The translations under genes and the position numbers were made by a program. The notes beneath the pieces are model-generated. The model had not been told where the DNA came from, ran no database searches, and was given only the letters and a program-made list of their open reading frames with translations. DNA of 64,000 nucleotides from Okamejei kenojei. Lineage: Eukaryota. Of the stretch, positions 11,687-61,962 are shown one piece after another. Location of the stretch: contig CM069160.1 of NCBI GenBank assembly GCA_035221665.1, positions 8,432,001 through 8,496,000 of the forward strand. The letters run 5' to 3'. Positions within the stretch are counted from its first letter, which is position 1; every line of letters starts with the position of its first letter.

Positions 11687-11794
11687 TAGACACAAAATGC
11701 TGGAGTAAATCAGCGGGACAGGCAGCATCTCTGGTGAGAAGGAATGGGTGACGTTTCGGGTCGAGACCCTTATTCAGACGGGGCAGTCAGACTT
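11687..11794 (-). mobile_element. Short Penelope-derived insertion with 12-bp TSD inside the last class I exon
   Basis: CATGATTGGGGA flanks both sides (11675-11686 and 11795-11806). The interior matches the abundant gtctgaagaagggtctcgacccgaaacgtcacc...gagttactccagcattttgtgtcta repeat that follows GIY-YIG fragments elsewhere in the window. Confidence 0.8.
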
Positions 11795-11895
11795 CATGAT
11801 TGGGGAGTCTGACTGGGGAAGCATTTTCTCTTCCTCGTTCCCGTCAACTCCTCCTGCTGTTACATCCTTCGGCAAAGACTCACTGCTGGTGGAAC
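11774..11895 (-). CDS. MHC class I exon 7, terminal cytoplasmic exon ([40 protein letters not shown])
   Basis: Acceptor tttctatcttAG, phase 1, open to TGA at 11776-11774. The last six residues and the stop come from a repeat insertion. An internal GTGAGT could be an alternative donor. Confidence 0.68.
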
Positions 11896-14800
11896 CTAAG
11901 ATAGAAAGTAACAAGGTGAGCGGAAATTCCAGGCAAGATTTGTGATAGGACAGCGCAGTGGGTGGACCTGCTGCCGCACAGCGACAGCGACCCAGGTTCG
12001 CTCCTGACCCCGGGTGCTGCTGGCGTGGAGTTTGCACGTTCTCCCTGTGACCACGTGGGTTTCCTCCGGCTGCCCTGGTTTCCTCCCACATCCCGAAGGC
12101 GTGTAGGTTTACTGGCCCTAGTGTCAGGTCGTGGGTGCAAAAGTGGGGTGACGTAGAACTAGCGTAAACGCGTGCACGATGGTTGGTGTGGACCCGGTGG
12201 GCTGAAGGGCCAGTTTCCATGCTGGATCCCAAAACTAAACACCATCCGACGTCCTTCTCTCTCCCCACCACCACATGCCCAACCCTCCTCACATAAGTCA
12301 AGTCAGGTCAAGTCACATTTATTTATATAGCACATTTAAAAAAAACTCTCGTTGACCAAAGTGCTTTACATTTGTTATAAGAGTAGTATACACAAGCAGG
12401 CTACGTACATATATACATATAGCCCTCGCTCAGAGGACGTCAGGGAGAACAGATACGTTTTTAGACTGGATTTAAAGAAGTCGATGGAGGGGGCAGTTCT
12501 AATGGGGAGGGGGATGCTGCTCCACAGTCTAGGAGCTGCGACCGCAAAGGCGCGATCGCCCCTGAGTTAATGCCTGGACCGCGGGACATTCAGCAACCCC
12601 AAAGTCGGCCGACCTGAGGTGGTGTAGTGGGTGAGAAGACTTTTAATGTAGGTGGGTGCAAGCCCACTGAGGGTTTGTAGACAAAGAGGAGGCTCTTGAA
12701 AATTAATTCGGAACCGCACAGGGAGCCAGTGGAGAGAGGCCAGGATCGGGGCGATGTGGTCCCTTTTTCGGGTGCCCGTCAGGAGTCTCGCTGCAGCATT
12801 TTGGACCAGTTGCAGGCGGGACGGGGAAGATTGGCTGATGCCACTGTAGAGGGAGTTAATCCAGGCGGGAGGAGATAAATGTATGGATGATCTTTCCGGG
12901 GGGGGGGGTGGGGGGGGTGACTGCCTAGAACAAACTGCCAAGGTGGTTGAAGCAGATAGGAAAGTGCCATTTCAAAGACTTTTGGATAGGTATATGGATA
13001 CGATGGGAATAGAGGGATATAACCATATAATAACCATATAACAATTACAGCACGGAAACAGGCCCTCTCGGCCCTTCCAGTCCGTGCCGACCATTTGTTT
13101 TCCCCTAGTCCCATCTACCTGCACTCAGACCATACCCCTCCATTCCCTTCACGTCCATATACCTATCCACTTTATTCTTAAATGTTAAAATCGATGCCGC
13201 CTCCACCACTTCTGCTGGAAGCTCATTCCACACAGCCACCACCCTCTGAGTAAAGAAGTTCCCCCTCACGTTACCCCGAAACCTCTGTCCCTTAATTCTC
13301 ATGTCATGCCCTCTTGTTTGAATCTTCCCTACCCTCAATGGGAAAAACATATCCACGTCAACTCTGTCTATCCCTTTCATCATTTTAAAGACCTCAATCA
13401 AGTCCCCCCTTAACCTTCTGCGCTCCAAAGAATAAAGACCTAACTTGTTCAACCTTTCTCTGTAACATAGTTGCTGGAACCCTGGCAACATTCTAGTAAA
13501 TCTCCTCTGTACTCTCTCTATTTTGTTGACATCCTTCCTATAACTAGGCGACCAAAATTGTACACATGACGCCATCCCTTAACTGCCTGCCCATAATCCA
13601 TAATATGGATTATGGGCAGGCAGTTAAGGGATGGCGTCATGTTCGGCATAGACATTGTGGGCTGAAGGGCTCATTCATGTGCTGTACTGTTCTATGTCCT
13701 ATGTTCCATTATTGTGATCCATGCTGGGAGCTGAATTTAGCACCAAGTCCTGCCCTGGTCCAACAAGCCCGTACAATGTCACTTACCTGATGCGGTAGAC
13801 TTGGTCTCACTGGATCCTAAAAAAAAATGAAAAGGCACAAGTCAGCTGCTGAGAAATGTCAAAAACACTGTCATAGGCTCCGCATCAAATGGCTTCCACA
13901 AGAACAAGCACATCATATTCTGGGAGGGTAAACCACAGCTGGAGATATTGGAGAGAGGGAGCGCTGCACTGAAGCATAGTGAACAGAGGGAGTGCTTCAC
14001 TGTTGGAATGAGGGAGTTGATTGAGTGCTGCATTGTTGCACAGAGAACCGAGGGAGCGCTGCACGGCTGCACAGAGAACGGAGTGAACCGAGGAGTACCA
14101 TACAACTGCCGGACGAGTCTGTGTTCCACGTGTATAAGGAGGGAGAGAGGTGGCAGCCCCTGTTCCAATACCTACAGTGGCTTGCAAAAGTTTTCATACC
14201 CCTTGAACTTTTCCACATTTTGTCACGTTACAACCACAAACGTAAATGTATTTTATTGGGATTTTATGTGATAGACCAACACAAAGTGGCGCATAAATGT
14301 GAAGTGGAAGGAAAATGATACATGGTTTTCACTTTTTTTTTTACAAATAAAAAACTGAAAAGCGTGGCGTGCAAAAGTATTCAGCCCCCTTTACTCTGAT
14401 ACCCCTAAATAAAATCCAGTGCAACCAATTGCCTTCAGAAGTCACCTAATTAGTAAATAGTGTCCACTTGTGTGTAATAACCATATAACCATATAACAAT
14501 TACAGCACGGAAACAGGCCCTCTCGGCCTTTCCAGTCCGTGCCGACCATTTGTTTTCCCCTAGTCCCATCTACCTGCACTCAGACCATACCCCTCCATTT
14601 CCTTCACGTCCATATACCTATCCACTTTACTCTTAAATGTTAAAATCGATCCTGCCTCCACCACTTCTGCTGGAAGCTCATTCCACACAGCCACCACCCT
14701 CTGAGTAAAGAAGTTCCCCCTCACGTTACCCCGAAACTTCTGTCCCTTAATTCTAATCTCAGTATAAATACAGCTGTTCTGTTAAGGCCTCAGACGTTTG

Positions 14801-17800
14801 TTAGAGAACATTAGTGAACAAACAGCATCATAAAGCCCAAGGAACACACCAGACAGGTCAGGGATAAAGTTGTGGAGAAGTTTAAAGCAGGGTTAGGTTA
14901 TAAAAAAAAATCCCAAGCTTTGAACATCTCACGGAGCACTGTTCAATCCATCATCCGAAAATGGAAAGAGTATGGCACAACTGCAAACCTACCAAGACAT
15001 GGCCGTCCACCTAAACTGACAGGCCGGGCAAGGAGAGCATTGATCAGAGAAGCAGCCAAGAGGCCCATGGTAACTCTGGAGGAACTGCAGAGATCCACAG
15101 CTCAGGTGGGAGAATCTGTCCACAGGACAACTATTAGTCGTGCACTCCACAAATTGGGCCTTTATGGAAGAGTGGCAAGAAGAAAGCCATTGTTGAAACA
15201 AAGCCATAAGAAGTCCCGTTTGCAGTTTGCCACAAGCCATGTGGGGGACACTGCAAACATGTGGAGGAAGGTGCTCTGGTCTGATGAGACCAAAATTGAA
15301 GTTTTTGGCCTAAATGCAAAATGCTATGTGTGGTGGAAAACTAACACTGCACATCACCCTGAACACACCATCCCCACTGTGAAACATGGTGGTGGCAGCA
15401 TCATGCTGTGGGGATGGTTTTCTTCAGCAGGGACAGGGAAGCTGGTCAGAGTTTGGTGGGAAGATGGATGGAGCCAAATACAGGGCAATCTTGGAAGAAA
15501 ACCTGTTAGAGTCTGCAAAAGACTTGAGACTGGGGCGGAGGTTCACCTTCCAGCAGGACAACGACCCTAAACATACAGCCAGATCTATAATGGAAAGGTT
15601 TAGATCAAAGCATATTCATGTGTTAGAATGGCCCAGTCAAAGACCAGACCTAAATCCAATTGAGAATCTCTGGCAAGACTTGAAAATTGCTGTTCACAGA
15701 CACTCTCCATCCAATCTGACTGAGCTTGAGCAATTTTGCAAAGAAGAATGGGCAAAAATTTCAGTCTCTAGATGTGCAAAGCTGGTAGAGACATACCCCA
15801 AAAGACTTGCAGCTGTAATTGCAGCGAAAGGTGGTTCTACAAAGTATTGACTCAGGGGGGCAGAATACTTTTGCAGCCACACTTTTCAGTTTTTTATTTG
15901 TAATAAAATTTGGAAACCATGTATCATTTTCCTTCCACTTCACAATTATGCACCACTTTGTGTTGGTCTATCACATAAAATCCCAATAAAATACATTTAT
16001 GTTTGTGGTTGTAACGTGACAAAATGTGGAAAAGTTCAAGGGATAGAAAACTTTTGCAAGCCACTGTGAAGCAGCTGCTCCTTGCCTTCTGGCTGCACTT
16101 CACACCCACCATCCTCATCTCTGGACACCCTGTGCACAGGTGAGAGGGTAGGGCCGAGGATGTCCTGGTTGGGTTGCTCCTGGGCCTGGCCAAGCTGGGC
16201 ATCCAAGAGTCAAGGCGTCAGGCGGAAGAGGGCTCTGCGCCTGGGTGGTTTTAGAAAGGGACTACGCACTGTCCACGAACGCCCTGGGGAATTTCCTGGC
16301 TTGCTGGGCACCGTGGGGGCATCCTAAATATGGCTGGTGATATTGTTGTTTCAGAATGTATTTGACATTTAAGAATATTTGTTTAGATAATTGGGTGATT
16401 TGTTGGTTTGTTTGGTCTTGCTTTGTATTGTATATTTTATTCTTGCAATCATTGATTAAATTTGTTACAAAAAAAAAAAGAGCACTTGACTGTGGGCATT
16501 CTAGCCCTCTACACCAGGGATCTGGGGCAGAGGGTACTGCCTGCATCGAGGAGTCACATGCAACCTGTTTCCATCCCGGTTCACAGACTTGCCTGCCGCC
16601 TGCTCCAATATCTAAAGGGGCTGCTTCTTGCCTTCTGGTGGCACCTCTCGCCCACCATCCTCGTCTTTGGACGCCCTGTGCATAGGGGAGGAGGAGGAGC
16701 CGAAGATGTTCTGGTTGGACATCTCCCGTGCCTGGCCAAGCTGACGATCTGCGAGTCACAGCGCCAGGCGGAAGAGGGCTGCCCGCCCCTTTTTCGGGGT
16801 TACGTCCATGCCCGGGTGGTACTGGAGAGGGACTGCGCACGGTGCATGGGCACCCTGGGGGATTTCCAGGACCGCTGGGCATCGCGGGGCGGGGGGGGGA
16901 TGAATGCATCCTTGACAAGGTTTGTAATACAATCATTTAATTTTCAGTATATTGAAGAATATTTGTTTTACTTTGTGCTGTGATGTTGGGTTTGTTGTTA
17001 TCGTTTTGTATTGTACATATTATTCTTGTAAATAATTGATTACAATTATTTTTTGGCGTAACAAAAAAAGCTCCATTTGCTTGCTCTGTGCCTCTTTGAT
17101 GGAGTATTGCTCATTTTCAATGCTCGTCTTCATTGCGTGTTTGGGGCTCAGTATATTGCAACAAAAAGAATCTTAACAGTCTGTGGCAGCACGGTGGTGC
17201 AGCGGGTAGAGCTGCTGTCTCACAGTGCCAGAGACCCCGGGTTCGATCCTGACCACGGGTGCAGTCTGTGTGTGCAGAGTTTGCACATTCTCCCTTTGAC
17301 CGCGTGGGTTTGATCTGCGTGCTCCGGTTTCCTCCCCCTTCCCAAAGATGTGCGGGTCTGTGGGTTAATAGTCCCCCCCCCCCCCCTCCCCAGTGTGAAG
17401 GGAGTAGATGAGAAACGGGATAACATAGAACTAGTGTGAACCAGTGATCGATGGTCAGCGTGGACCGAAAGGCCTGTTTCATTGGTGTATGTCTAAACTA
17501 AACCAAGTGCTTGAGGTTAGCAAATGCGAGCGGCTTGTCCCTGACTGTCGCATGTGAAACAGATCGTGCAATGTGGACTTACCTTTGCCAAAACAGCAGT
17601 TGTTTTTCACCACTCCTGAACCCTTCTTCCACAAGATGAAAACAACCCACAGTGTGCACAGTAACAGCAGGAAAGCCGGGACCGCTAGCCATATAAGAGC
17701 TCGGCCACCCTGGTCTAATTAAACAAGAAGTCATTGTAATATCAGCGGACGGGAACGATCAGTCAGCGCATAGTGCACCCAACCCTTACCCAGCGTCCCT

Positions 17801-20800
17801 TACCCAGAGGTGGCACAGTGGCGCAACTGGTAGAGTTGCCGCCTCACAGCACCAGAGACCCTGGTTCAATCCCGACCTCAGGACAAAGCCGAGCAAGTGA
17901 TGGGTGGATACAGGTGAAATGTGGTAGTGGGTTTGATTGGCGGATGGGTGGGCAAAGGACCACAGGGCGCAGTGAGCAGAGCTGCTGCCTCACGCCACCA
18001 GAGGCCCGGGTTCGATCCCGACCCCTGGCGCTGTCTGTGTGTGGAGTTGCACATTCTCCACGTGACCGCGTGGGTTTCCGCCGGTGCTCGGCTTTCCTCC
18101 CACATCCCAAGAAAGACGTGCGGGTTTGTAGGTTAATTGGCCCTCTGCAAATTGACCCTGGTATGTAGCGAGTGAATGAGAATACGAGATAACATAGAAC
18201 TATTGTCAACAGGTGAGCAGATGGTCAGCATGAATTCGTTGGGCCGAAGGGTCTGTTTCCGTGCTGTATCTCTACAGTAAACTAAATCCCACCCTCCTGC
18301 CCTCTCTCTGGATACACAATTAGCTTGATGGTAGGAAGCAGCTGAATATGGTGCAAGGTTGGCTTGTTTGGACTTGAGCCCAATGGTATGCGTCAGGGAT
18401 CGGTGCTGAGCCCTTTTCCCGAGTTTGATCTCTATTAACGATTTGGATGAAAATGTAGAGATATAATGGTGGAGTAACTCAGCGGGACAGACAGCATCTC
18501 TGGATAGAAGGAATAGGTGATGTTTCGGGTCGAGTCTGAAGAAGGGTTTCGACCCGAAACATCACACATTCCTTCTATCCCGAGATGCTCCCTGTCCAGC
18601 TGAGTTACTCAAGCATTTTGTGTCTATCTTCAGTTTAAACCAGCATCTGTAGTTCCTTCCTACACATTGGATGAGAATGTACGAGCCATGGCTAGTAAGT
18701 TTGCAGATGACACTAAAGTAGTTGGTATTCTAGGGTGGGAAGATGAATAGAGTCAGAGTCTTATAACATGGAAACAGGCCCATCAGCCCAATTTCCCAAT
18801 GCAGACCAACCCGCCCCATCACTCTAGCCCCACCTGCCTGCATTTGGCCCATATCCCTCTAAACCTGCCCTATCAATGTGCCTCTCTAAATGTTTCTTAA
18901 ACTTTGTGTTAGTGCCTGCCTCAACTACCTCCACCAGCAGCTCGTTCCATATGCCAACCACCCTTTGTGTAAAAAAAGTTGCCCCTCAGTTTTTTTCTAT
19001 TGCATTTTTAAAAATAATCTTTTGGATGGCGCAACATAACATAACCTTAGAAATTAAATGGTTTAGAACTGGGTTACGGATGGGCAAAAATATGAGATAG
19101 GTAGATCTCTCCTAATCTCTCTTTTCTTTTTACTTTTTCCTTTTCTTTCAATCTTTTAACTGCTCACCTCTGTCCTTTATTTTTTTTTGTTTTCTGTTTC
19201 TACTCGCTTGTCTATCTATTCTGACACTCTTTATTTCTTTTTTCTCTCACTGTTCGTTTATTATTGAACCAAAAGTATGAAGTTGTACAAGAATGATAAT
19301 ATGTATTTATGTATTAGGTTCTTAAGTACCAGACTACTGTACTTACTTCTAACAAAACTAAACAAACAAAAAAAAAAAAAATAATAATAATCTTTTGGTT
19401 ATCAAGAATTACAGTGCGATCTTAATCAGCTGGGCAGGTGGGCCGAGGAATGGCAAATGGAGTTTAATTCAGACAAGTCCGAGGACTTGCATTTTGAGGA
19501 GTCAAACAAGGGCAGCACTTTCACAGGTTAACAGTATGACCCCGAGGAGTGTGGTGGAGCACAGGGATCTAGGAGAAGGGATATACAGTTCCCTGAAAGT
19601 GGCATCAGAGGAACTGCAAGTGCTGATTTAAACCAAAGATAGACACAAAAAGCTGGAGTGACTCAGCGGGACAGGCAGCATCTCTAGAGAGAAGGAATGG
19701 GTGACGTTCATACCACGGGTATGAATTTTGATTTCTCTAACTTCAAGTAACCCCGGCATTCCCTCTGTCTCCATCCCTCCCCCACCCAAGTTGCACCAGC
19801 TTCTCGTTTTCACCCAACAAAGAGCTAACAATGGCCTGTTTCCTTTATGATTGTTACTTTTTTGCATATCTTTTGCTCATTTGTTCTATATCTCTCTACG
19901 TCATTGCCTATATCCCTCATTTCCCTTTCAAGTGACTCGTCTGAAGAAGGGACTAGACCCAAAAGTACACCCATTCCTTCTCTCCAGAGATGCTGCCTGT
20001 CCCGCTGAGTTACTCCAGGTTTTTGTGTATATCAGAGGTAGTCATGATGGTGAAGAAGGCTTTTGACTTTAATCTGTAAGGGCCTTTACTATGGAGGAAC
20101 TGCACATGCTGGTTTACAAAGAAAGAACTGTAGATTCTGGTTTACAAAAAAAAAGACACAAAGTATTGGATAACTGAATGGGTCAGGTAGCATCTCCGGA
20201 GAACAAGGAAAGGCGATGTTTTGGGTTGGGTCCCTTCGTCGGACTAGAAGACGGTTATGGTTGGGATCCATTCTCAGACTGAAAAAGAGCCCCAATCCGA
20301 AACGTCGCCTATCCATGTTCTCCAGAGATGCTGCCTGACCCGCTGTGTTACTCCAAAACTTAATGTGAAAACCAAAGAGCTGCAGATGCTGGTTTATACC
20401 AAAAATAGACACAACGTGCTGGACTAACTCAGGAGAAAAAGAATGGGTGACGTTGCGGGTCGGGCTACTTCAGTGTGGAAATGGGTCCCGACCCAAAATG
20501 TCACCTATCCATGTTCTCCGGAGATGCTGCCTGACCAACTGAGTTGCTTTAGCACTTTGCATCTTTCATTGAGTATGGAGGTTGGGACGTGTTGCTACAG
20601 TTGTACAAGTTGTTCTTCATCCATCTCTTACCCCAGTCAACAGTCATTCCTTCGGGCCTGCTGCTGTGCCACACGCGGCAGACGTGCTCCCGTCTCTCTG
20701 CAGGCTCCATCAGCAGAGAAAGCTTCATCTGGTAGGTGCCATCGTGGTTGGGTAGAACGCCAGAGTTTCTGTTCGCGGGGACAGGTTGCCCCTTGCGGAA

Positions 20801-23800
20801 CCAACTCATGTTGATGGCCTGCGGGAAAAAGCCAGTCGCCAGGCAATGGAGAGCGAGTTTCTGGCCATCGGGAGACCTCCCGGAGTAGACCCTCACATCT
20901 GGAACAGCTGAGAGAATAGAGAGAGAGAGAGAGACATGGAGATACAGGGAACCACAGACACTGGAATATTGAGTTAATATTGGAGAAGCCCGTTAGACTT
21001 TAGATATCCAGCGTGGTTACAGGCCCTTCCGCCCACTGAGTCCGCACCAACCAGCGATCAACACTAGCACTATCCTACACGCACTGGGGACAGTTTACAA
21101 TTTTTACCGAACCAATTAACCGATAAACCTGTACGTCTTTGGAGTGTGGGAGGACACTCGAGCACCTGGAGGAAACAGGAAGACGGTACCAAATGTATCC
21201 GTACATTCAGCACCCATAATCAGGATCAAACCTGGGTCTCTGGTGCTGTAATGGCCCTGTCCCACTTAGGAAACCTGAACGGAAACCTCGGGAGACTTTG
21301 CGCCCCACCCAAGGCTTCCGTGCGGTTCCTGGAGGTTTTTGTCAGTCTCCCTAATGGTCGAAAGTGGTTTCCATTTTAAAAATCGGTAATTTTTTTAGTC
21401 GAAGCCGGTTGCGATGCTAGTTGAAGGTGGTTGCCGGAGGACAAAAACCTCCGGGAACCGCACGGAAACCTTGGGTGGGGCGCAAAGTCTCCAGAGGTTT
21501 CCGTTCAGGTTTCCTAAGTGGGACAGGGGCATTAGGCAGCAACTCTACCGCTGTGCCACTGTGCTCGACAAACCCAGAGGGTCAGGCAGCATCTGTGGAG
21601 GACAATGGGCAGGAACACTCTCTGAACCACAATGCCCTCTGTCCATTCCCACCAGCGATGCTGCCTGTTGGAGCCATTAAGCTTGTCAGTATTATTATCA
21701 TCATGCCTGATATTTTTAGTTTTAGTTTGTAATCTGCCTGTACTTTTGTAGGTGGGATTTGATACATAGTTAGGGGTGTGTTGTTTTTGTTAGAGGCATC
21801 TGGCACAGACTCTCAGATTTGAAGTTTCAGTTTGGTGTCGGAGAATGAGGGGAAACAGTTTTCTGCCATGATCACACACATGTTACGAAACGACATACCT
21901 CTATAAGAAGCTTTTATGCGATTTAGATGATGTGAATGGAACAGCGATAAAGAGCAGAAAAGTTATGAGTTCTTTCTTTGTTTTGTATTACTTCAATAAA
22001 AAAGCAATTAATCAAGAAACGAGGTCTGGAAGATTAACCTTTGCTGTCTTATGTGTGTCGTGCGTGCGTTAGGCTGTACCTCAGAATCATCTCCGATAAT
22101 TAATGGCTATCGAAGTCGGACTTTGAGAACGTTGTAAAAAGTGCCATTGTACAGCCTAAACCACCGATGTTTGCTGCCTTACAGCGCCAGAGACCCGAGT
22201 TTGACCCCAACTACAGCAGAGATGCCAACCCTAAATTTAGTTCACAGTAACATTTAACCCATTTGTCCGTAACAAATGGGGTTAAATGCATTTCTCTCCG
22301 TACTCACCTGGGGTTGTTGCCGGCGGCTATGCGCCTGCGCACTGGTGCAGATCAGCGGGCTGCTGGCGGGCGGGTGCGGCACATGCGCACTTGGCAAGGT
22401 TGCCGGCGGGTCTGCGCCTGCGCACTGGGTGGGGGTGGGGGGGAGGCCCGGTGATGGGGCTGCCGCAAGAAAGTGCCGCTGATCGCGCGGGCCGGCGCCG
22501 CCCGGGCTCTGGGCCGGGCGTGGCGTGGCTCGAAATGGCGCCAGGCCCGGCAACCCTCCCCCACTGCGCATGCGCGGCCACTGGGGCCCGGCAACCCTCC
22601 CCCACTGCGCACGCGCGGCCACTGGGGCCCGGCAAAGTGCCGCTGATCGCGCGGGCTGGCAAACCGGGGACACATGGCGCCGGTGTTCACCACGGGAGGA
22701 ACACCGGCGCGGCGGTGTTCCGTAACAGCATGTTTGGCTGCCGGAACACCGTAAAAAGTTTATTTCGCCGGGATAAAATACGGCGAATCCGGGACACTTG
22801 GCATCTCTGCTACAGGCGCTGTACGTATGGAGTTTGTACGTTCTCCCCGTAACCTGCGTGAGTTTCCCCCAAGAGCTCCAGTTTCCTCCCACACTCCAAA
22901 GATGAACAGGTTTGTAGGTCAATTGGCTTGGTAAAATAGTATATTGTCCCGCTGGTCGGCACGGACTCAGTGGACCGAAGTGGCCCATTTCCTTGCTGTA
23001 TCTCCAATACTAGCCTAAAAACTGTGGAAGATAGTCATGGCCAGGGTCTCGAGTGCACAACCTGTGGAGGTCAACAGCGCAACAGATTGAGAGCTCCTGA
23101 GACCCTGGTTTGAACCTGACCCCATTGCTGCCTGCATGGAGTTTACAAATTCTCCCTGTGAGTCCATGGGTTGCCACCAGGTACTCCGGTTTCTTCCCAT
23201 ATCCTAAAATTAAGTGGCCAAATAGTCTCAAGTGTTAAGATGAGTGGTGGAATCTGGAGGAACAAGATGGGAATATGGGATTGGTGTAGAACATAGGATA
23301 GTACAGCATGGAAACAGGCCCTTTGGCCCGCTCTGTCTGTGCTGATCATCATGCCAATTTTAACTAATAACATCTGCCTGCACAGGGTTTGAATCCCTCC
23401 ATTCCTCTGTTCATTGTTGTTCGTGTGCCTGTCTAAATTTATTTTAAACATTGCTATCATGTTTATCTGGCAGCACATTCTTTGGACCAATCAGCTGTCT
23501 TGCAAATCTCCTTTTTGCTGACACCTCCTAATCCAGGCATCATTCTGGTAAACCTCTCCCGTAACCTGCGCAAAGCTCCCACTGCGGCACCTTCTCGCGG
23601 CCGAGCCACTTTGGTCACGAACCGTCGTTCGTCGAGCTCGAGCTCTTACGTGAACGCTGGTGATCGGCGCTGATCTGGGTGGTCAGCTGACAGGGTGCAA
23701 CAGACGATGGAGCCAGTCTTCCCTTGGCAGTGAACGCGTTAACACACTTTGCACTAATATTACACAGAGTTTAAATATTAAACTGATTGTTTATACAACA

Positions 23801-30535: not shown

Positions 30536-33500
30536 GAGACTTTTAAAGTCAGGACCCTTCATCAGTCTTTGAAATTTACAAACTGGAAAAAGGATTCTGA
30601 TTTTCTACTCTATCTAAGCCCCTCATAATTTTATATTCTTCCATCACATCTTCCCTCAACCACCAGCGCTCCAGAGAAAACAGTCCAATTTTGTCCAACC
30701 TCTGCTTATAGCTAATACCCCTAATCCAGACAACATTCTGCACCCTCTGCAAAGCCTCCACATCCTTCCTGCAATGGGGCGACGAGAACAGCACACCGTA
30801 CTCTAAAGGCGGCATAACTAAAGTTTTACAAAGCTGCGTCATGACTTCCTGACTCTTATGCCCAATGCCCTGACTGATGAAGGCTAAGCACACATTACAA
30901 CTCAGCGAGCTAGCGTTAGGGCAGAGGGGTTCCATCACCCAGTGTGTGTGGGGGTGGGGCAGTGGTTCCCATACCATGGGGGAGGCAGCGGGAGGGTGTG
31001 GAGTCACTCATGAAGGCAGTTTGGGGTTCGACACGAAACCCAAAGTGTTGGAGCAACTCAATAGATCAGGCAGCATCTGTGGAGGGAATGGATCACCAAC
31101 GTTTTGGGTAAGGACCCTCCCTCATAAGGGTCTACACGCCAAGCGGCAAGGGGGGTAGATAATGCAGGTCCACACAGCAAGTGTGGCCTTTGGTCAACCA
31201 GAAATGGGTGTGACTTCCCATCCTGGTGACCAAACCCAAGGGTGATAGAGGAGGTAAGACAAATGGTGGAGTAACTCAGTGGGACAGTCTGCATCTCTGG
31301 AGAGAAGGATTGGGTGACGTTTCGGGTCAAGACCCTTCTTCAGACTGATAGAGGTGGTGGCGGGACAAGAGGGGGGTAGGATTGGCGGGCGGAGGGGCAG
31401 GCGACGGCTGGCACAGCCTGACCTACCTTTGCGAGATAGCGCGGAGTCTCCGTACTTGAGGTATTTCTCCAACCATTCCACGCAGATCGTGTCGGTGTAA
31501 TGCTTCTTGTAGAGGTTGTTGGCTGTGTCCCTGTTCCACTTGTCCTTCGTGCTCAAGGCCAAGGGCGAGGCGGTGACCCAGATGGACCGCTCGAAGTCAA
31601 AGCTGATCAGGTCCTGGCCGTTGAAGGCGTACTGGCGCACCCCGCTCACCGTCCCGTTGTCCGAGATGCTGCAGCCCGACGTGTACTGCAGGTAGTTCAG
31701 CTCTAGACATGGAGAGAACGTCAAAAGCCGTCCGAAACTCACACGCATCCTCTACATCCACCAACCCAAGGGTGGCATATGGATACAACAAGATGGATAT
31801 TACCCACCATTACCTGCCCATTACTGTCCCAATTCAGCACGTAACTCAACATCCCGTTACACTCCCGATAGATGTAATAAAACTTTTGGTGACACCATAT
31901 ATTAGTTTTGTTTATTATTATTGTCAAGTCATAGACTCATACAGCATGGAAACAGGCCATTTGGCCCAACTTCCCACACCGACCAATATTCCCATCTGCA
32001 CTAGCCCCACCTGCCTGCGTTTGGTCCATATCCCTCTCAACCTGTCCTATCCATGTGTCCGTCTCATTGCTTCTTAAATGTTGCAATCGTCCCGACATCA
32101 ATTACCTCCTCTAGCAGCTGATCCCATATACCCACCACCCTTTGAGTGAAAAAGTTACCCCTCAGATTCCCATTGAATCTTCCCCCCTTCAGCTTAAACC
32201 TATGTCGTCTGGTTCTCGATTCCCCTGCTCTGAGCAAGAGACTCCGTGAATCTACCCGATCTATTCCTCTCATGATTTTATACACCTCAAGAGTACAGAG
32301 GTGTATTAAAAAGCTTTTCCCTGCATGCTAAAAGGCAATACATGATTACAATCAAGCTGCCCACAGTGTACAGATAAAGGGAATGATGTTTACTGCAAGA
32401 TAATGTCCAATTAAAGATAGTCCAAAGGTCTCCAATGAGATAGGTGGTGACTCAGGCCAGCTTTCTAGTTGGTGATAGAATGGCTCAATTGTCTCTAAAG
32501 AGCCTTTGAAGAAACTGTCCCTGAATCAGGAGGTTTACGTGTTCACACTCCCGTGCCTCTTGCCTAACGGGAAAGGGGAGAAGCAGGAGTGACTGGGGTG
32601 AGACACATCCTTCATTATGCTGGCATTCCTAGGATGGCTGATTTGGAGGGTTGTGTTCAGTTTTGGTTACCCTGCTCTAAGAAGGAAGTTAATAAACTGA
32701 GAAGAGAGCAGAGAAGGTTTACTTTCTCCCCGTGACCTGCGTGGGCTTTCTACTATATATTCCTGGGACGGCACGATTTCCATATGAAGAAAGACTGGAT
32801 AGACTTGGCTTGTACTCGCTGGAATTTAGAAGATTGAGGGGTGATCTCATAGAGACTTACAAAATTCTTAAGGGGTTCGACAGGCTAGATGCAGGAGGAT
32901 TGTTCCCGATGTTGGGGAAGTCCAGGACAAGGGGTCACAGTTTAAGGATAAGGGGGAAGTCTTTTAGGACCGAGATGAGAAAATCGTTTTTCACACAGAG
33001 AGTGGTGAATCTGTGGAATTCTCTGCCACAGAAGGTAGTTGAGGCCAGTCCGTTGGCCATATTTAAGAGGGAGCTGGATGTGGCCCTAGTGGCTGAAGGG
33101 ATCAGGGGGTATGGAGAGAAGGCAGGTACAGGATACCGAGTTGGATGATCAGCCATGATCATATCGAATGGCGGTGCAGGCTCGAAGGCCTGCTCCTGCA
33201 CCTAATTTCTATGTTTCTATGTTTCTATATGTTCGGTTTGCTCTCGCACCCCAAAGATGTAGAGGTTTATGGGTCAATTGGCGGTGCAGACTTGGTGGGC
33301 CGAAGGGCCTGTTTTCACGCTGTATCTCTAAACTAAACTGAAATGTCTGAGCAAATCATTGCCCATGACATGCAGTGTGAATCAAGCAGTGAGGATACAC
33401 GCACCCATCTTGCTGAGGTTAGCTCGCTGCATCATGATCTGGACATTGGCCATGTACAACTTGTGTCGATTGATCAATCTCTGGGTCTCCTTGTCCCAGT

Positions 33501-36500
33501 AGTCACTTCCCAGGGCTCTCTCCATCCAAGGCTGCCGTGCAATGTCCTCCTCGGATTTGCTGTCAAAGTAGGTTATCTGAACGCCATCCAAAACTCCGAT
33601 GTGCACAAACTCGGGAAGGTCCACACTCCCGACCATCGAGGTGTAGTAATACTGCAGTGAGTGAGTCTCTGTAAATCACAACACAACACAACCTCAGAAT
33701 GAGATAACATGGTGCCGGCCTTTCAGACACCTCCCCTCCTCTATCTCCTGCCCACCACCTCCCCAGTAAAATAACATGGAACATAGAACAGTACATTACA
33801 GGACAAAGGCCCTTGGACTCACAATGTTTGTGCCAAACATGACGCCAAGATTAGAAGATCTAATCTGCCGGTACATGGGGCATATCCCTCTATTATTTTC
33901 ACTTTGAATTGAATTGAATTAATTCAGTCTGAACGAAATTTCGCTCCCCTGCAGTCATACACATAATTTAAAAAATGATAGAAACACACAATAAACACCA
34001 ATTTAACATCCACCACAGTGAGTTCACCAAACACCTCCTCACTGTGATGGAAGGCAAAGTCTTAAAGTCTCTGTCTCTTCCCTCTTTGTTTCCCACTTAC
34101 AAGTACCTACCTAAAAGCCTCTTAAATGCCACTATCGTATCTGCCTCCACCACCTGTCAGTGCGTTCCTGGCACCTACCACCCTCGGGGTAAAAATCTCA
34201 CCCAGCACATCTTCATTGAACTTTCCCCCTCTCACCTTATAGCTATGCCCTCTAGTATTGGATATTTTTATTTATTTATTTATTTTTTTTCAAATATTTT
34301 TATTATAGAAACAAAATAATAACAAAGTACATTATTTTGCAATGACGAAAATACATGATATTAATGATATATTCGTACTGTTAATAATATTTGTATTATT
34401 ATTGATTATTAATTTTAAGATTATGTATTTTATATAATTGAGAATACATGGTACTAGTAATACATTCATAATATTAGTAATATACTCGTACTGTTGATAA
34501 TATTTGTATTGTCACTGATTTTGAAATGTAGGACCATATTTTATATAATTGAAAATACGTAATACTAGTAAAACCTTCATGATATTCATTATATTTTCAT
34601 ACTGTTAATAATATTTGTATTATCATTGATTTTAAAATTTAAAATTATATATTTTATATAATTGAAAATACATGATACTAATAATACTTTCATGAAATTA
34701 GTAATATTTATATTCGTACTGATATTAAAAATTTAAGATTATGTGTTTCTATACATTTTTCTAATTTTTTATAAAAGTATGAAAAAATAGAGAAAAAAGA
34801 GTGTGAAAAGTTTGATGGAGAATGGAGTATTAATCATTAATCCGTCCTTGGAGATGTATTCATGATTTATTATATATATTTCTTCATCCATTCAAATATT
34901 CAGGCCGATATGTTAACTCTAGGGGAAAAAAGGTTCTGTCTACCTACCCTGTCTATGCATCATGATTTCATCTACTTCTATCAAGCCTCCCTTCAACCTC
35001 TAATGTTTCAGAGAAAACAATCCAAGTTTATCCAACCTAATGGGCAGAGAGAGCTCAAGAAATGAATGCCTTCATCTGAATGGAGACACAAGGAACTGCA
35101 GATGCTGGAATCCTGAGCAAAACACAAAATGCTGGAGTAACTCAGTGGGTCCGGCAGTATCTGTGGAGGGCAGGCCGCGTTTCAGCTCAGGACCCTGTTT
35201 CGACTACATCTCCGTTGGAAGAAAATTATTAAAACAGAGAGGTGAAAGTGTACACTTATAGTCTCCACACTACAGGAAGAATGTGGCTACGGGGAAAACG
35301 TACACACAGACAGCACCCATAGTCAGGATTGAACCCAGGTCTCTGGCGCTGTAAGGCAGCTGCTCTACATCTGCGCCACCATGCTTGTAGGAATCTGAGG
35401 GGCAACTTGTTCATGCAGAAGGTGATGGCTATATGGAACAAGCTTCCAAAAGTGGTATTTGAGGCAGGTACTATAGTAGCAGGTACAACATTTAAAGACT
35501 TTTGGACAGGTGCACGGATAGGAACGGTTCAGAGGGATATTGGCCAACCGCAGGAAGCTAGGAATAGTGAAGATGGTCGCCTTGGGCAAGTTGGGCCAAA
35601 GATCCTTTTTCCATGCAGTATGACACCGAGTAATTCCAACATTTTCTAATTTATTTTTCACATTGCAGACTGAGGGGTGATCTGTATAAAACCATGAGGG
35701 GAATAGACACGATGCATATACAGAGTTTTTTTAAGCGAGGGTAGGGAAATCAAATAGAAGAGGACATAGGTATAGAAGTGGATAGGTATATGGACGTGAA
35801 GGGAATGGAGGGGTATGGTCTGAGTGCAGGTAGACGGGACTAGGGGAAAACAAATGGTCGGCACGGACTGGAAGGGCCGAGAGGGCCTGTTTCCGTGCTG
35901 TAATTGTTATATGGTTATATGTTCAAGGTGAGAAGGGATAGATTTAATGCAGACCCGAGAGCTATCTTTTTCACTCAGAGGGTAGTAGCATATAGAACCA
36001 GCTGCCGGAGGAGGTAGTTGAGGCAGGCATGATAACTGCATTTAAAAGATACTTAGTCAGGTACGTGGAGAGTAAATTTTTAAAGGGATGTGGGCCAAAC
36101 GTGGGCAAATGGGACTAACTTAGATGGGCCTGCTTCGGGGAATGAAGGAGTTATGCCGAATGGTCTGTTTCATTGCTGTATGACTCCAGTAGAGATGTGA
36201 ACACAATAAACAGCATAGACAGGGTGGGTCATAGGGCCTGCTCTTGTACTCTATAAATCTATGATTATATCGTTCGCAAATTTATGTTGACCTATTTATT
36301 TATCACGCATTGACCTGGCTCTCCACTTTTCCATACCCCCGCCCCCATTATAATGTCATTCTCGACCCGAAATTGCACTTGTCCATGTTCCCCAGAGTTA
36401 TTCCACATCTTCCCATCTTTCTCCCCCCCCCCCCCCCCCCATCTGCCTTCCGCAAAGACCGCTCCCTCCGCAACTCCCTTGTCAATTCTTCCCTTCCCCC

Positions 36501-37618
36501 CCCCCCCCCGCTCCACCCCTTCCCCGGGCACTTTCCCTTGCAACCGCAAGAGATGCTACACTTGTCCCTTCACCTCACCCCTACACTCCTTTCAGGGACC
36601 CAAGCAGTCCTTCCAGGTCCGACAGACCAGGTTCACCTGCACCTCCTCCAACATCATCTACTGCATCCGCTGCTCCAGATGCCAGATGATCTATATCGGT
36701 GAGACCAAGCGGAGGCTTGGCGATCGTTTCGCCGAACACCTCCGCTCGGTCCGCAATAACCAACCCGACCTCCCGGTGGCTCAGCACTTCAACTCCCCCT
36801 CCCATTCCATATCCGACCTCTCGGTCCTGGGCCTCCTCCACGGCCAGAGTGAGCAACACCGCAAGTTGGAGGAACATTTTTTTTAATTTCAAAATATACT
36901 TTATTCAAATGATAAATATATACAATACATTAACCTTGCGGAAAATCCATCCGACATTTTCGGAGGCTGTACAATAGATCAATACAGGTTAGACATTTCT
37001 TTCCCCCAAATTTCCACAAATCAGTCCCCCACTCGTGCCACAATGGCGTGGGATACCTTCCCTTATATTGCGGGGCGTCTCCACCATACCGTACCCCCCA
37101 TGTCCAGCAGCGGAAGGGCCTTAGACTGTGGCCCTCCCTGGAGGAACAGCCCCTCATATTCCGCTTGGGGAGTCTGCATCCTCTGGGCTTGAACATTGAA
37201 TTTTCTCAATTCTGTTAACCCTTGCTGTCTCCTCCCCTTCCCACCTCTCCCTCAGCCCTCGGGCTCCTCCTCCTCCTTTTTCCTTTCTTCTCCCCGCCCC
37301 CCCCCCCCCCCCCTCCTCCCATCAGGCTGAAGAGGGTTTCGGCCTGAAACGTTGCCTATCTCCCTCGCTCCATAGATGCTGCTGCACCCGCTGAGTTTCT
37401 CCAGCCTTTTGTGTACCCTCGATTTTCCAGCATCTGCAGTTCCTTCTTAACACTTATTCCTGCCTGACCCAGGCACCTGCCTGACCCGCAGAGTTATTCC
37501 AGCATTTTGCGTACATTAGTCCTTTATTCTCTCCAAAGGGAGGCTAGAGAAATGAACTCCACCTACCTGAACAGACCCAGGGAAGGCATAGACACAAGGT
37601 ACCGAGTAGCAGCAACAT
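11774..37618 (-). CDS. MHC class I heavy chain gene (7 coding exons, 383 aa); probably non-classical UDA-like lineage of cartilaginous fish
   Basis: Seven minus-strand exons with GT-AG phase-1 junctions join into one open frame of 52+264+276+276+132+30+122=1152 nt: signal peptide, alpha1, alpha2 (C101-C164), C1-set alpha3, TM and a two-exon cytoplasmic tail. No stops or frameshifts seen. Lineage call is an inference from the 8/9 anchor pattern. Confidence 0.93.
12295..12875 (-). mobile_element. L2 LINE 3' fragment
   Basis: [33 protein letters not shown] motif; (cttga)n tail at about 12296-12315. Confidence 0.85.
13017..13567 (-). mobile_element. CR1 3' end, (taaccata)n-tail subfamily
   Basis: Near-identical to 2073-2620. 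Confidence 0.9.
13787..13816 (-). CDS. MHC class I exon 6, cytoplasmic mini-exon ([10 protein letters not shown])
   Basis: Strong acceptor (ttttcattttttttAG) and donor CAG|GTAAGT around 30 nt, phase 1-1; Ser/Thr-rich like class I tail exons. Confidence 0.8.
14175..16066 (+). mobile_element. Tc1-family DNA transposon (DD34E, IR/DR-type TIRs of about 215 bp), defective copy 1
   Basis: TA|CAGTGGCTTGCAAAAG...CTTTTGCAAGCCACTG ends; transposase motifs [35 protein letters not shown]. Start codon mutated to ATA, frameshift near 15455, CR1 fragment inserted at about 14478-14753. Confidence 0.95.
16067..17070 (+). mobile_element. Two tandem Tx1/L1-like 3' fragments with A-tails
   Basis: Two similar LLLAFW.H..PTIL..G.PV units, each followed by a T-rich UTR and an A-run (about 16470-16480 and 17063-17069). 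Confidence 0.6.
17583..17714 (-). CDS. MHC class I exon 5, transmembrane ([44 protein letters not shown])
   Basis: Acceptor ttaattAG, donor AAG|GTAAGT, 132 nt, phase 1; about 23-aa hydrophobic stretch followed by KK stop-transfer. Confidence 0.9.
20632..20907 (-). CDS. MHC class I exon 4, alpha3 Ig C1-set domain (AVPDVRV...[10 protein letters not shown]...LPNHDGTYQ...HVCRVWHSS...VDW)
   Basis: Polypyrimidine (tc)n tract and cAG acceptor, donor G|GTAAGA, 276 nt; C1-set Cys pair, GFFP and LPNxDGTYQ motifs. Confidence 0.96.
21252..21531. mobile_element. PIF/Harbinger-type palindromic MITE inserted in a SINE
   Basis: CCCTGTCCCACTTAGGAAACCTGAACGGAAACCTC...GAGGTTTCCGTTCAGGTTTCCTAAGTGGGACAGGG, inverted arms of about 85 bp, flanked by TAA/TTA. 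Confidence 0.75.
22217..22809. mobile_element. GC-rich non-autonomous DNA transposon with 6-bp TSD (hAT-like), inserted in a SINE
   Basis: CTACAG|CAGAGATGCCAA...TTGGCATCTCTG|CTACAG; internal tandem duplication of about 42 bp. Confidence 0.8.
25150..29420 (+). mobile_element. Rex1/Babar-type non-LTR retrotransposon, apparently 5'-complete, interrupted by nested insertions
   Basis: Arg-rich N-terminus [24 protein letters not shown] motifs ITETWL and GGGLCIY, RT motifs [25 protein letters not shown] and KFADDT; several frameshifts. Confidence 0.85.
27704..28026. mobile_element. PIF/Harbinger-type MITE inserted in the Rex1 RT
   Basis: CCCTGTCCCAC...GTGGGACAGGG ends; it splits the FLTN|RPQ codons of the LINE. 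Confidence 0.75.
30197..30481 (+). mobile_element. Probable solo LTR (285 bp)
   Basis: TGTGGCG...CGCTACA inverted termini, AATAAA at 30418-30423, embedded in a (TAT)n tract; TSD not clean. Confidence 0.6.
31427..31702 (-). CDS. MHC class I exon 3, alpha2 domain ([11 protein letters not shown]...STKDKWN...[17 protein letters not shown])
   Basis: Acceptor tctAG, donor AAG|GTAGGT, 276 nt. G100-C101, Q-Y-A-F-N-G-x-D, W133, T143-K-x-K146-W147, Y159, C164, W167, Y171. Confidence 0.96.
33405..33668 (-). CDS. MHC class I exon 2, alpha1 domain ([11 protein letters not shown]...DYWDKETQ...QRANLSKM)
   Basis: Acceptor tttacAG, donor G|GTGCGT, 264 nt. Motifs H3-S-L-x-Y7, PEFV..G..DG, PWM, Y59-W-D-x-E-T, R84 and the N86-L-S sequon. 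Confidence 0.96.
34265..34906 (-). mobile_element. 3'UTR and poly-A of the same L1 family, in class I intron 1
   Basis: Reverse complement matches 43120-43770 (ggcctgaatat..gaatggatgaagaaatatatat..tccaaggacggattaatga); T-run at the left end. Confidence 0.8.
36385..37455 (+). mobile_element. Penelope-like element 3' part (GIY-YIG endonuclease plus terminal repeat), interrupted by a Tx1-like fragment at about 36880-37140
   Basis: ORF 36353-36886: [34 protein letters not shown]; resumes EEQ.LIFRLG.L.P.GLN at about 37140, followed by a CTGAAGA...GAAACGT terminal segment. Confidence 0.88.
37567..37618 (-). CDS. MHC class I exon 1, leader peptide [17 protein letters not shown]
   Basis: ATG at 37618-37616, hydrophobic 17-aa signal peptide, phase-1 donor CAG|GTAGGT at 37566; lies about 170 bp downstream of the X/Y promoter boxes. 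Confidence 0.88.
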
Positions 37619-37759: not shown

Positions 37760-37862
37760 TCATTGGGCACTCGGATGCAAGCGGCCAATGAGAGATTTTC
37801 ACAGTACCTGCTCACCAGTTACCAGGCCGCCTAGACTCAAACAGTTTAAAAACAGGAAACCG
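37760..37862 (-). promoter_or_regulatory. MHC SXY-type promoter module: X1 box, Y box, downstream CCAAT; possible S box and ISRE/ETS-like site
   Basis: Minus strand: X1-like CCTGGTAACTGGTG (37826-37813), exactly 20 nt, Y box CTCATTGG (37792-37785), then a forward CCAAT 18 nt after the ATTGG (37766-37762). GGTTTCCTGTTTT upstream (about 37861-37849). Confidence 0.75.
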
Positions 37863-47326: not shown

Positions 47327-48907
47327 CAGTGGCTTGCAAAAGTTTTCATACCCCTTGAACTTTTCCACATTTTGTCATGTTACAACCACAAACGTAAATG
47401 TATTTTATTGGGATTTTATGTGATAGACCAACACAAAGTGGTGCATAATTGTGAAGTGGAAGGAAAATGATACATGGTTTCCAAATTTTTTTACAAATAA
47501 AAAACTGAAAAGTGTGGCATGCAAAAGTATTCAGCCCCCTTTACTCTGATACCCCTAAATAAAATCCAGTGCAACCAATTGCCTTCAGAAGTCACCTAAT
47601 TAGTAAATAGAGTCCACTTGTGTATAATCTAATCTCAGTATAAGTACAGCTGTTCTGTGAAGGCCTCAGAGGTTTGTTAGAGAACATTAGTGAACAAACG
47701 GCATCATGAAGCCCAAGGAACACACCAGACAGGTCAGGGATAAAGTTGTGGAGAAGTTTAAAGCAGGGTTAGGTTATAAAAAAAATATCCCAAGCTTTGA
47801 ACATCTCACGGAGCCCTGTTCAATCCATCATCCGAAAATGGAAAGAGTATGGCACAACTGCAAACCTACCAAGATATGGCCGTCCACCTAAACTGACAGG
47901 CCGGGCAAGGAGAGCATTGATCAGAGAAGCAGCCAAAAGGCCCATGGTAACTCTGGATATGCTGTAGAGATCCACAGCTCAGGTGGGAGAATTTGTCCAC
48001 AGGACAACTATTAGTCGTGCACTCCACAAATCGGGCCTTTATGGAAGAGTGGCAAGAAGAAAGCCATTGTTGAAGCAAAGCCATAATAAGTCCCGTTTGC
48101 AGTTTGCCACAAGCCATGTGGGGGACACAGCAAACATGTGGAGGAAGGTGCTCTGGTCTGATGAGACCAAAATTGAAGTTTTTGGCCTAAATGCAAAACG
48201 CTATCTGTGGCGGAAAACTAACACTGCACATCACCCTGAACACACCATCCCCACTGTGAAACATGGTGGTGGCAGCATCATGCTGAGGGGATGCTTTTCT
48301 TCAGCAGGGACAGGGAAGCTGGTCAGAGTTGATGGGAAGATGGATGGAGCCAAATACAGGGCAATCTTGGAAGAAAACCTGTTAGAGTCTGCAAAAGACT
48401 TGAGACTGGGGCAGAGGTTCACCTTCCAGCAGGACAACGACCCTAAACATACAGCCAGAGCTACAATGGAATGGTTTAGATCAAAGCATATTCATGTGTT
48501 AGAAAGGCCCAGTCAAAGTCCAGACCTAAATCCAATTGAGAATCTCTGGCAAGACTTGAAAATTGCTGTTCACAGATGCTCTCCATCCAATCTGACTGAG
48601 CTTGAGCTATTTTGCAAAGAAGAATGGGCAAAAATTTCAGTCTCTAGATGTGCAAAGCTGGTAGAGACATACCCCAAAAGACTTGCAGCTGTAATTGCAG
48701 CGAAAGGTGGTTCTACAAATTATTGACTCAGGGGGGCTGAATACTTTTGCACGCCACACTTTTCAGTTTTTTATTTGTAATAAAATTTGGAAACCATGTA
48801 TCATTTTCCTTCCACTTCACAATTATGCACCACTTTGTGTTGGTCTATCACATAAAATCCCAATAAAATACATTTACGTTTGTGGTTGTAATGTGACAAA
48901 TGTGGAA
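47327..48907 (+). mobile_element. Tc1-family DNA transposon, defective copy 2 (same family)
   Basis: Same left TIR; ATG at 47706; +1 frameshift in the A-run near 47780; ORF to 48726 with the DD34E triad; outer ~35 bp of the right TIR missing. Confidence 0.95.
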
Positions 48908-61592: not shown

Positions 61593-61962
61593 TGTCCACC
61601 GCTACACAACCGTGACGCCGTTAGTTGGGCAAGGCGGTTGCCAGTTTCCACTTGCCAGTCTCGCCCAATGTAGAGGAGGCCACATTGGGAGCACCGAAAG
61701 CTGTAGACGAGTAAATGGATAGGAAAGGTTTAGATGGATATGGGCCAAACTCAGACATGCATGGAGGACGATTGTGGATGGGACAACTTGGTGTGCATGG
61801 GCAAGTTGGGCCAAAGGGCCTGTTTCCCTGCTCACTGACCTATGAGGTTCAAGGAGATGCATAGCTCACTCGACCTTTCTCTCTCTGCTGATCCGGACCC
61901 TTCTCCTCTGCATCTCCTTCCTCAGGTCGGAGATCCTCCATCTCCCAGCGGCTCCCTGGACC

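Follow-up and report, generated by a model that had tools for sequence, protein, structure and literature searches.

A skate orthologue of the nonclassical class I gene UDA with a near-constant groove

The 64,000-nucleotide stretch of Okamejei kenojei DNA analysed here (the window) carries a class I gene that is almost certainly the skate orthologue of UDA, a nonclassical class I gene of cartilaginous fish. The UDA lineage is ancient and already described, and the window gene is an additional skate orthologue. Taken as a whole, the data are best read as a single-copy UDA gene whose product likely pairs with beta2-microglobulin and whose peptide groove has probably been held near-constant by selection.

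Gene structure, lineage and genomic position

The initial annotation had placed a class I groove at 31427..33668, and both ends proved to be exact exon ends (alpha1 33668-33405, alpha2 31702-31427, minus strand). A further five exons lie outside this interval. The complete minus-strand gene is intact and spans 26 kb (37618-11774), with seven exons encoding 383 aa, no internal stops and GT-AG boundaries throughout.

37785..37826, minus strand: putative X1-X2-Y promoter module, closed by a Y box (ATTGG), some 170-210 nt 5' of the ATG
37567..37618, minus strand: exon 1, signal peptide of 17 aa (leader score 85, next 23; GT donor)
33405..33668, minus strand: exon 2, alpha1, 88 aa, with the N86 glycosylation sequon (AG/GT, phase 1; PF00129)
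31427..31702, minus strand: exon 3, alpha2, 92 aa, with C101-C164 and an additional N106-G-T sequon (AG/GT, phase 1)
20632..20907, minus strand: exon 4, alpha3 Ig C1-set domain
17583..17714, minus strand: exon 5, connecting peptide, transmembrane helix and juxtamembrane Cys-Cys (tblastn with skate orthologues; AG/GT)
13787..13816, minus strand: exon 6, cytoplasmic, 10 aa (score 30, next 19; AG/GT)
11774..11895, minus strand: exon 7, end of the tail with an EEEKML dileucine-like motif and the stop codon

Exon 6 is missing in one little-skate isoform (P0024). In four assembled contigs near-identical to the window gene, from runs taken as RNA by guess, alpha1 is spliced to an alpha2 of exactly 31427-31702; alpha1 had no coverage at 96% identity in runs X3 and X4. 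As a UDA gene it would be expected to show lower and more tissue-restricted expression than UAA.

Upstream of the gene there is probably an X-Y promoter module of the MHC type; the search pattern for it was derived from the consensus after the site had already been seen, so that the chance figure of the match carries little weight. The promoter of a UAA-like gene (L066) has a comparable core and spacing by eye and gave no match to the strict X1-X2-Y pattern. No ISRE or kB match occurs in the 580 nt upstream of the UDA gene, which is uninformative because the L066 control promoter has neither; in a second control gene, L067, the leader could not be placed.

With lineage labels assigned by eye on the basis of PMC10751288 (supplementary file 10), we found that alpha1 and alpha2 are identical to labelled little-skate UDA at 82 of 88 and 78 of 92 positions, respectively (counted by eye). 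In a tree of 63 rows, which took in UAA, UBA, UFA and UGA rows and a single UCA/UEA-like row, a 100/99 branch separates the 19 UDA-like rows from all others, with Leucoraja and Amblyraja as the neighbours of the window gene; the reference row P0019 is the labelled nurse-shark UDA sequence. Forcing the window gene together with 12 UAA/UBA-like rows gave a p-AU of 4e-125. The tree and the AU test thus set the UDA clade apart from UAA, UBA, UCA/UEA, UFA and UGA, placing the window gene among UDA and rejecting a grouping with classical UAA. Two other identities were also discarded: the window gene keeps peptide anchors and falls outside the clades of the CD1-like UFA and UGA, and it does not match the Z-specific groove residues of teleosts (by eye, against one Tetraodon Z row).

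Searches of the skate's own genome with three exons returned one self match each, the next best being at 39%, 39% and 51%. Such counts are lower bounds, and this is the only UDA copy found in the Okamejei kenojei genome; UDA is likewise described as single copy in PMC10751288. Within the 64 kb it is indeed the sole class I gene, as first annotated, and the absence of TAP and PSMB exons was borne out, with no proteasome or ABC-membrane matches (again lower bounds). A UFA-like gene begins about 34 kb past the left edge of the window, its class I exons adjoining UDA on the same strand at C30:8.39-8.40 Mb. The class Ia region of C30 has TAP-like (1.47 Mb), PSMB8 (1.50 Mb) and UAA-like (1.55 Mb) sequences, 6.9 Mb from the UDA gene; a further TAP2-like exon lies at 5.55 Mb, and the nearest TAP-like exon is 2.9 Mb from UDA. 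UDA is hence located with UFA in an MHC class Ib area, away from class Ia and free of tight PSMB8/9-TAP linkage. These neighbour searches covered UFA, PSMB8, TAP and UAA.

The cytoplasmic tail of the window UDA has no tyrosine and hence no classical tyrosine motif; tyrosine is present in all 22 delimitable UAA-like tails (24 examined). An ExxxML dileucine-like motif occurs in 9/9 batoid UDA tails, and shark UDA tails have no canonical motif of this kind. We treat the batoid motif as a new lead, which Almeida 2020 or the 2021 follow-up may already describe, as they may the groove charge.

A reading as a polymorphic gene of the classical UAA type, or as a duplicate that arose from UAA recently, might be argued from the nine anchor residues of the window gene, which are the same as in four of 21 UAA-like sequences, and from a sequencing run (X9) that differs from it at two groove positions. 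Against this reading stand the gene's distance from PSMB8/TAP, its tail, and its few matches to the UAA-like gene of the same genome (18/45 positions in the groove, 48/135 outside it). The tree and the p-AU value exclude it, and we leave it next to no probability. Label identity, tree and AU test, single copy, MHC position and groove invariance all agree on the UDA-type gene that was originally proposed.

Anchor residues and the character of the groove

Residues were numbered on HLA-A2 with motif anchors, following HLA-A2 as it stands in the published alignment. Every residue listed in the initial annotation was found in place: the anchors Y7, Y59, R84, T143, K146, W147, Y159 and Y171 together with L123; groove residues Y9, H24, D45, R66, R70, Y74, Y97, S99, R114, Y116, Y155 and K156; and N93-Y94 and N119. 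Almeida et al. are said to have reported in J Immunol in 2020 that UDA retains eight of nine invariant peptide anchors. This set is present here, but it does not diagnose UDA, because the identical set, L123 included, occurs in four of 21 UAA-like shark/ray sequences. Within UDA, Y59 is lost in two of 21 elasmobranch sequences and in the holocephalan-like one, and K146 in one of the 21. The window gene has M81 in the F-pocket wall, where the other 20 UDA have A (19) or V (1); Y74 is common to skates and holocephalans, most rays and sharks having S.

All UDA rows listed carry N/N in place of the conserved H93/D119 pair, and for this reason pairing with beta2-microglobulin is an assumption. Q96, A117, G120 and D122, which we take to be interface positions, are present in the window gene. 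A model of the Amblyraja orthologue, standing in for the window protein, adopts the usual class I fold, with a mean pLDDT of 84.8. The altered beta2m-side residues N93, Y94 and N119, and the longer Tyr-free tail with its dileucine-like motif, would suit a non-presenting receptor, transport or chaperone role like that of FcRn, HFE or ZAG, with the groove as a protein-binding surface. Conservation is nevertheless concentrated in the groove, the terminal anchors are retained, and the MHC-type promoter module is likely there, all of which make such a role very improbable.

The groove was described at first as having an unusual basic and aromatic lining, positively charged, Tyr-rich and suited to a restricted, perhaps acidic, ligand set; this is only partly borne out. 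The basic part holds as a count: at 20 inward positions there are four K/R in 18/18 UDA versus 0-3 in 21 UAA-like sequences, and R66, R70, R114 and K156 do not vary across 21 elasmobranch UDA. The aromatic part does not, the UDA count of 5-6 lying inside the UAA-like range of 3-10. Furthermore, D45 and E63 are invariant as well, and D69 and D152 are added in most shark UDA. Summed over 36 chosen positions, batoid UDA has a net charge of +1 to +2 and shark UDA one of -1 to +1; acids partly offset the basic residues, which leaves the shark groove near neutral.

Conservation was assessed over 45 groove positions, our own list based on the HLA-A2 literature rather than that of the Almeida paper. 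Compared with nurse shark, identity is 38/45 in the groove versus 69/135 elsewhere (Fisher p 9e-5), and with holocephalan-like UDA it is 34/45 versus 54/134. Two Triakis class I alleles show the reverse pattern, 26/45 versus 107/133. Invariant groove positions number 28/45 in 21 elasmobranch UDA rows versus 8/45 in 21 UAA-like rows, and three more differ solely by a gap in one incomplete UDA row. Positions 62, 69, 74, 81, 116 and 152 are tolerant and vary.

At closer range, 13 skate-cluster UDA sequences, unassigned to species or individual and capped at 90% identity, have no variable groove positions versus 25/45 among 15 Triakis sequences. Four samples from one study carry identical listed differences from the window, none in the groove among the 8/9 displayed. 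Run X9 has eight non-synonymous and two synonymous changes, including the groove changes Y74H and Y116F. Its species label is that of a run near-identical to the window; X9 may come from another species, the alternative being allelic groove variation.

Proposed function of UDA

From the sequence comparisons, UDA would probably present short peptides drawn from a narrow and conserved set. Because both terminal anchor sets are retained, the peptide ends would be gripped in the way known from classical class I. The invariant centre (Y9, H24, D45, E63, R66, R70, Y97, S99, R114, Y155 and K156) would select one motif, and an acidic or polar mid-peptide anchor could rest on R114, K156 and R70, as on Arg111 of chicken BF2*0401. 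By this analogy an acidic anchor is possible, a proposal we make tentatively. Recognition of the complex would fall to NK-type receptors or to T cells of the invariant type instead of a diverse repertoire. UDA of skates and rays may be routed through endosomes by its ExxxML tail; we rate such routing as rather doubtful.

The single copy and the invariant cluster of R66, R70, R114, K156, Y9, Y97 and Y155 could suit a small non-peptide, probably anionic, metabolite or phosphorylated compound held in the manner of MR1, and MR1 is frequent among the fold and sequence matches, as all class I molecules are. However, most of the 21 elasmobranch UDA retain the two terminal anchor sets, in contrast to UGA- and UFA-like rows, from which several anchors are gone. 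UDA carries Asp at position 45 and has no Lys close to the one used by MR1, which we take to be K43, and the fold search ranks MR1 no higher than shark, carp and chicken class I. A ligand of this kind is therefore unlikely, and peptide presentation remains our preferred reading.

Relation to known class I systems and significance

The window gene agrees with published UDA in orthology, anchors with L123, groove set, single copy and class Ib location, and differs in M81, the extra N106 sequon and surface changes. Classical shark and ray UAA (e.g. PDB 6LUP) shares the fold, exon layout and terminal anchors but has its own clade, a variable groove, a tail tyrosine motif and PSMB8/TAP linkage, and does not have the N93/N119 of UDA. 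No UDA-titled structure is found among Foldseek ranks 1-50, where UAA and UGA structures are present.

According to PMC6523485, the typical Z lineage of bony fish is ancient, with a near-invariant groove and a predicted conserved 8-9-mer ligand. Compared by eye alone (one Tetraodon row; the trees held no Z row), Z shares with UDA Y9, a basic residue at 70, N77, I80, Y116 and Y155, but differs at 24, 45, 63, 66, 67, 73, 97, 99, 114, 156 and 171. Chicken BF2*0401 likewise has an Arg on the groove floor, numbered 114 in HLA and Arg111 in chicken, and this residue forms a salt bond with a P5 Asp (PMC8926493). BF2*0401 is a classical allele with R9, R80 and R111 and a strongly positive groove, whereas UDA has Y9 and I80 and acids that offset the charge. 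The CD1-like UFA and UGA of sharks, with reported lipid binding (PMC12562908; PDB 9CH4 is UGA), are also MHC-linked low-copy class Ib genes, and a UFA-like gene directly adjoins UDA; they differ in having lost several peptide anchors and in forming separate clades.

The annotation itself is routine, and the interest lies at the level of the lineage, in which ligand keeps the groove near-fixed from skates to chimaeras. Concrete mutants for ligand-elution and trafficking work can be drawn from the full gene model, the tail motif and the tabulated fixed and tolerant positions. It is conceivable, if improbable, that batoid UDA cycles through endosomes and presents a single conserved class of peptides, acidic or modified. 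If true, a groove fixed since the shark-chimaera split would be combined with an ExxxML motif replacing the classical tail tyrosine, and in skates and rays a class I molecule would be loaded by a class-II-like route.

Structure and spliced form of the UDA gene

The interval 31427-33668, which the initial annotation had read as a class I groove, ends at the outer borders of the alpha1 and alpha2 exons. The other exons were found by orthologue-guided search.

Exons of the UDA gene (window coordinates)
37618-37567, minus strand, leader exon
33668-33405, minus strand, alpha1 exon, 264 nt (AG/GT, phase 1; PF00129 above the curated cut-off)
31702-31427, minus strand, alpha2 exon, 276 nt (AG/GT, phase 1; PF00129 above the curated cut-off)
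20907-20632, minus strand, alpha3 exon
17714-17583, minus strand, transmembrane exon
13816-13787, minus strand, cytoplasmic exon, 30 nt
11895-11774, minus strand, last exon

The spliced model comprises 383 aa with no internal stops and GT-AG borders in all six introns; a near-final version (380 aa) gave 83-84% identity with the Leucoraja and Amblyraja proteins, a similarity that places the animal among the skates. Contigs of 948-1283 nt from four runs of one study, presumed to be RNA, join alpha1 directly to alpha2 at the predicted boundaries, with 9 differences from the window across both exons. Two of these runs were flagged 'probably DNA', yet their contigs lack the alpha1-alpha2 intron. 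This shows that the spliced form exists in near-identical sequence, the contigs saying nothing on expression level.

A putative X1-X2-Y-like promoter module lies at 37785-37826, with spacing resembling that of a UAA-like promoter in locus L066. Mobile-element remnants comprise Tc1/mariner transposases (14818-15847 and 47968-48723, one within a UDA intron), a LINE reverse transcriptase in intron 3 (25258-28548) and a GIY-YIG Penelope-like fragment in intron 1 (36314-36883).

Lineage and genomic setting

UDA labels were taken from sequences in supplementary file 10 of PMC10751288. By eye, the comparison protein P0019 is identical to the labelled nurse-shark UDA, and little-skate UDA shares 82/88 alpha1 and 78/92 alpha2 residues with the window. 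In an alpha1-alpha3 tree of 63 rows out of about 155, near-duplicates and most amphibians being left out, a 100/99 branch sets apart 19 UDA-like rows; the window gene's nearest neighbours there are Leucoraja and Amblyraja, followed by Rhinoraja and next by other rays. In a constraint test on 32 rows, forcing the window gene together with 12 UAA/UBA-like rows was rejected (-161 log-likelihood units, p-AU 4e-125), so the clustering with classical UAA that would have overturned the initial annotation does not occur. Classical UAA/UBA-like membership is thereby ruled out, and the UDA-type assignment of the initial annotation is borne out by tree placement and constraint test alike. The gene is real, intact and correctly identified, a new orthologue of the already described UDA lineage.

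Genome searches with each extracellular exon returned one self match each, the next best reaching 39%, 39% and 51% identity, and all alpha1 and alpha2 class I matches listed fell on contig C30, which bears the window at 8.43-8.50 Mb. About 46 kb past the UDA stop codon, beyond the window, lies a UFA-like gene on the same strand; the same order, UDA then UFA, occurs in fused gene models of Rhinoraja, Scyliorhinus, Stegostoma and Rhincodon. UDA lies 6.9 Mb from a cluster in which a PSMB8 exon, at 1.50 Mb, is flanked by TAP-like exons at 1.47 Mb and a UAA-like gene at 1.55 Mb. Copy number and position fit the layout given in PMC10751288, where single-copy UDA and UFA share a class Ib cluster separate from the compact class Ia region.

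Several other loci were observed. A class I gene in four near-identical copies, one partial (C30 3.85, 4.12, 4.38 and 7.00 Mb; loci L004, L005, L008, L009, L018-L020, L025, L026, L028), groups as the sister of UGA with 97/89 support on a long branch; most of its peptide anchors are gone, and by eye it has no counterpart among labelled supplement rows. It may represent a UGA-related group that has no name yet, and its several copies could be a product of assembly duplication. UGA-like sequences at 4.66-4.86 Mb (L006, L007, L010, L016, L017, L023, L024, L029) comprise two apparently intact copies that face opposite ways, plus a degenerate third. UAA-like genes are scattered at 1.55, 3.03, 6.55 and 7.72 Mb (L002, L003, L012-L014, L021, L031, L032), with a stop in the 3.03 Mb copy and W147L in the 6.55 Mb copy; only the 1.55 Mb copy adjoins PSMB8/TAP. 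A second TAP2-like exon (L058) lies at 5.55 Mb, separated from the class Ia cluster by 4 Mb. UFA-like alpha3 sequence is present as two degenerate fragments at 5.60 and 6.69 Mb (L034, L035). Small contigs carry Ig C1 exons (L030, C1003:16484-16729; L033, C574; L036, C1028), that of L030 resembling a supplement row labelled UHA and that of L036 a class II or W-type alpha domain. Upstream of UDA, within the MHC class Ib area, are single-exon, apparently tandem GNAT acetyltransferase ORFs (PF00583), presumably NAT8-like, at window 61846-62667 (+), L064:3342-4238 (+) and near 6083-6502 in L065.

Composition and conservation of the groove

Residue numbers were set by conserved motifs together with HLA-A2 as it stands in a published alignment; on this numbering every residue listed in the initial annotation is present at its position. 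The nine-residue anchor set with L123 does not serve as a UDA mark, the same set occurring in 4/21 UAA-like rows. Of the proposed basic/aromatic lining the basic part held, with four basic residues at 20 inward positions in 18/18 UDA rows versus 0-3 in UAA-like rows (acidic residues there number 2-3 in the 18 UDA rows), whereas aromatic counts (5-6) lie inside the UAA-like range of 3-10. Over 36 positions, batoid UDA carry a net charge of +1 to +2 and shark UDA one of -1 to +1. On these alignments the groove, proposed to be fixed and positively charged, appears fixed with a basic centre, but not strongly positive across the lineage. Anchors are lost in some shark UDA, namely Y59I with K146A in the Mustelus sequence P0018 and Y59D in the Logan sequence P0011, which suggests relaxed constraint in those lineages.

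Of 45 groove positions compared, 28 were invariant in 21 elasmobranch UDA rows, with 3 more differing only by a gap, and 8 in 21 UAA-like rows. Between the window and nurse-shark UDA, 38/45 groove and 69/135 other positions are kept (p 9e-5); between two class I alleles of Triakis the pattern is reversed (26/45 and 107/133 identical). Among 13 of 32 skate-cluster sequences, 0/45 groove and 9/135 other positions vary (p 0.11); 15 Triakis sequences from a single cluster vary at 25/45 and 31/135. The sequence of DNA run X1 is almost the same as the window and may be where the window comes from; run X9, under the same organism label, carries Y74H and Y116F among its eight non-synonymous changes and would count against UDA monomorphism. 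A different species is a plausible source of X9, since its 11 differences from the window over about 567 nt approach the 13 of a differently labelled organism.

Cytoplasmic tail and proposed role

A tail tyrosine occurs in 22/22 delimitable UAA-like tails (24 examined); the window UDA tail has none. The motif [DE]xxxML is present in 9/9 batoid UDA tails, which are related by descent and do not represent nine independent events, and the holocephalan-like P0044 has EAQILI. The canonical motif is absent from shark UDA tails (six delimited, four from fused models), most of which show a V-Q/E-x-P-L-V/I type word, and it was found in none of the UAA-, UBA- and UGA-like tails. Fish class I tails with dileucine motifs have already been described (PMC3760826, PMC6523485); a literature search outside the two primary UDA papers found no report of a UDA tail motif or ligand. 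Nearly all UDA tails have a juxtamembrane cysteine (window 17583-17640), possibly a palmitoylation site.

As a stand-in for the window protein, the Amblyraja orthologue was folded with a 99-row alignment (mean pLDDT 84.8; above 90 throughout alpha1-alpha3). Its closest structures are nurse-shark class I (6LUP), shark UGA (9CH4) and chicken BF2*0401, and these near-equal scores give no indication of function. Rival readings are that UDA binds a small ligand in an MR1-like manner or has a non-presenting role. By analogy with Arg111 of BF2*0401 (PMC8926493), UDA peptides with an acidic mid-peptide anchor are plausible. Most likely, UDA presents a restricted, conserved peptide set as a beta2m-associated molecule: its product would pair with beta2m and the complex would display a narrow, conserved set of peptides, much as proposed for the typical Z lineage of bony fish, to which UDA, compared by eye with one Tetraodon row, does not belong.
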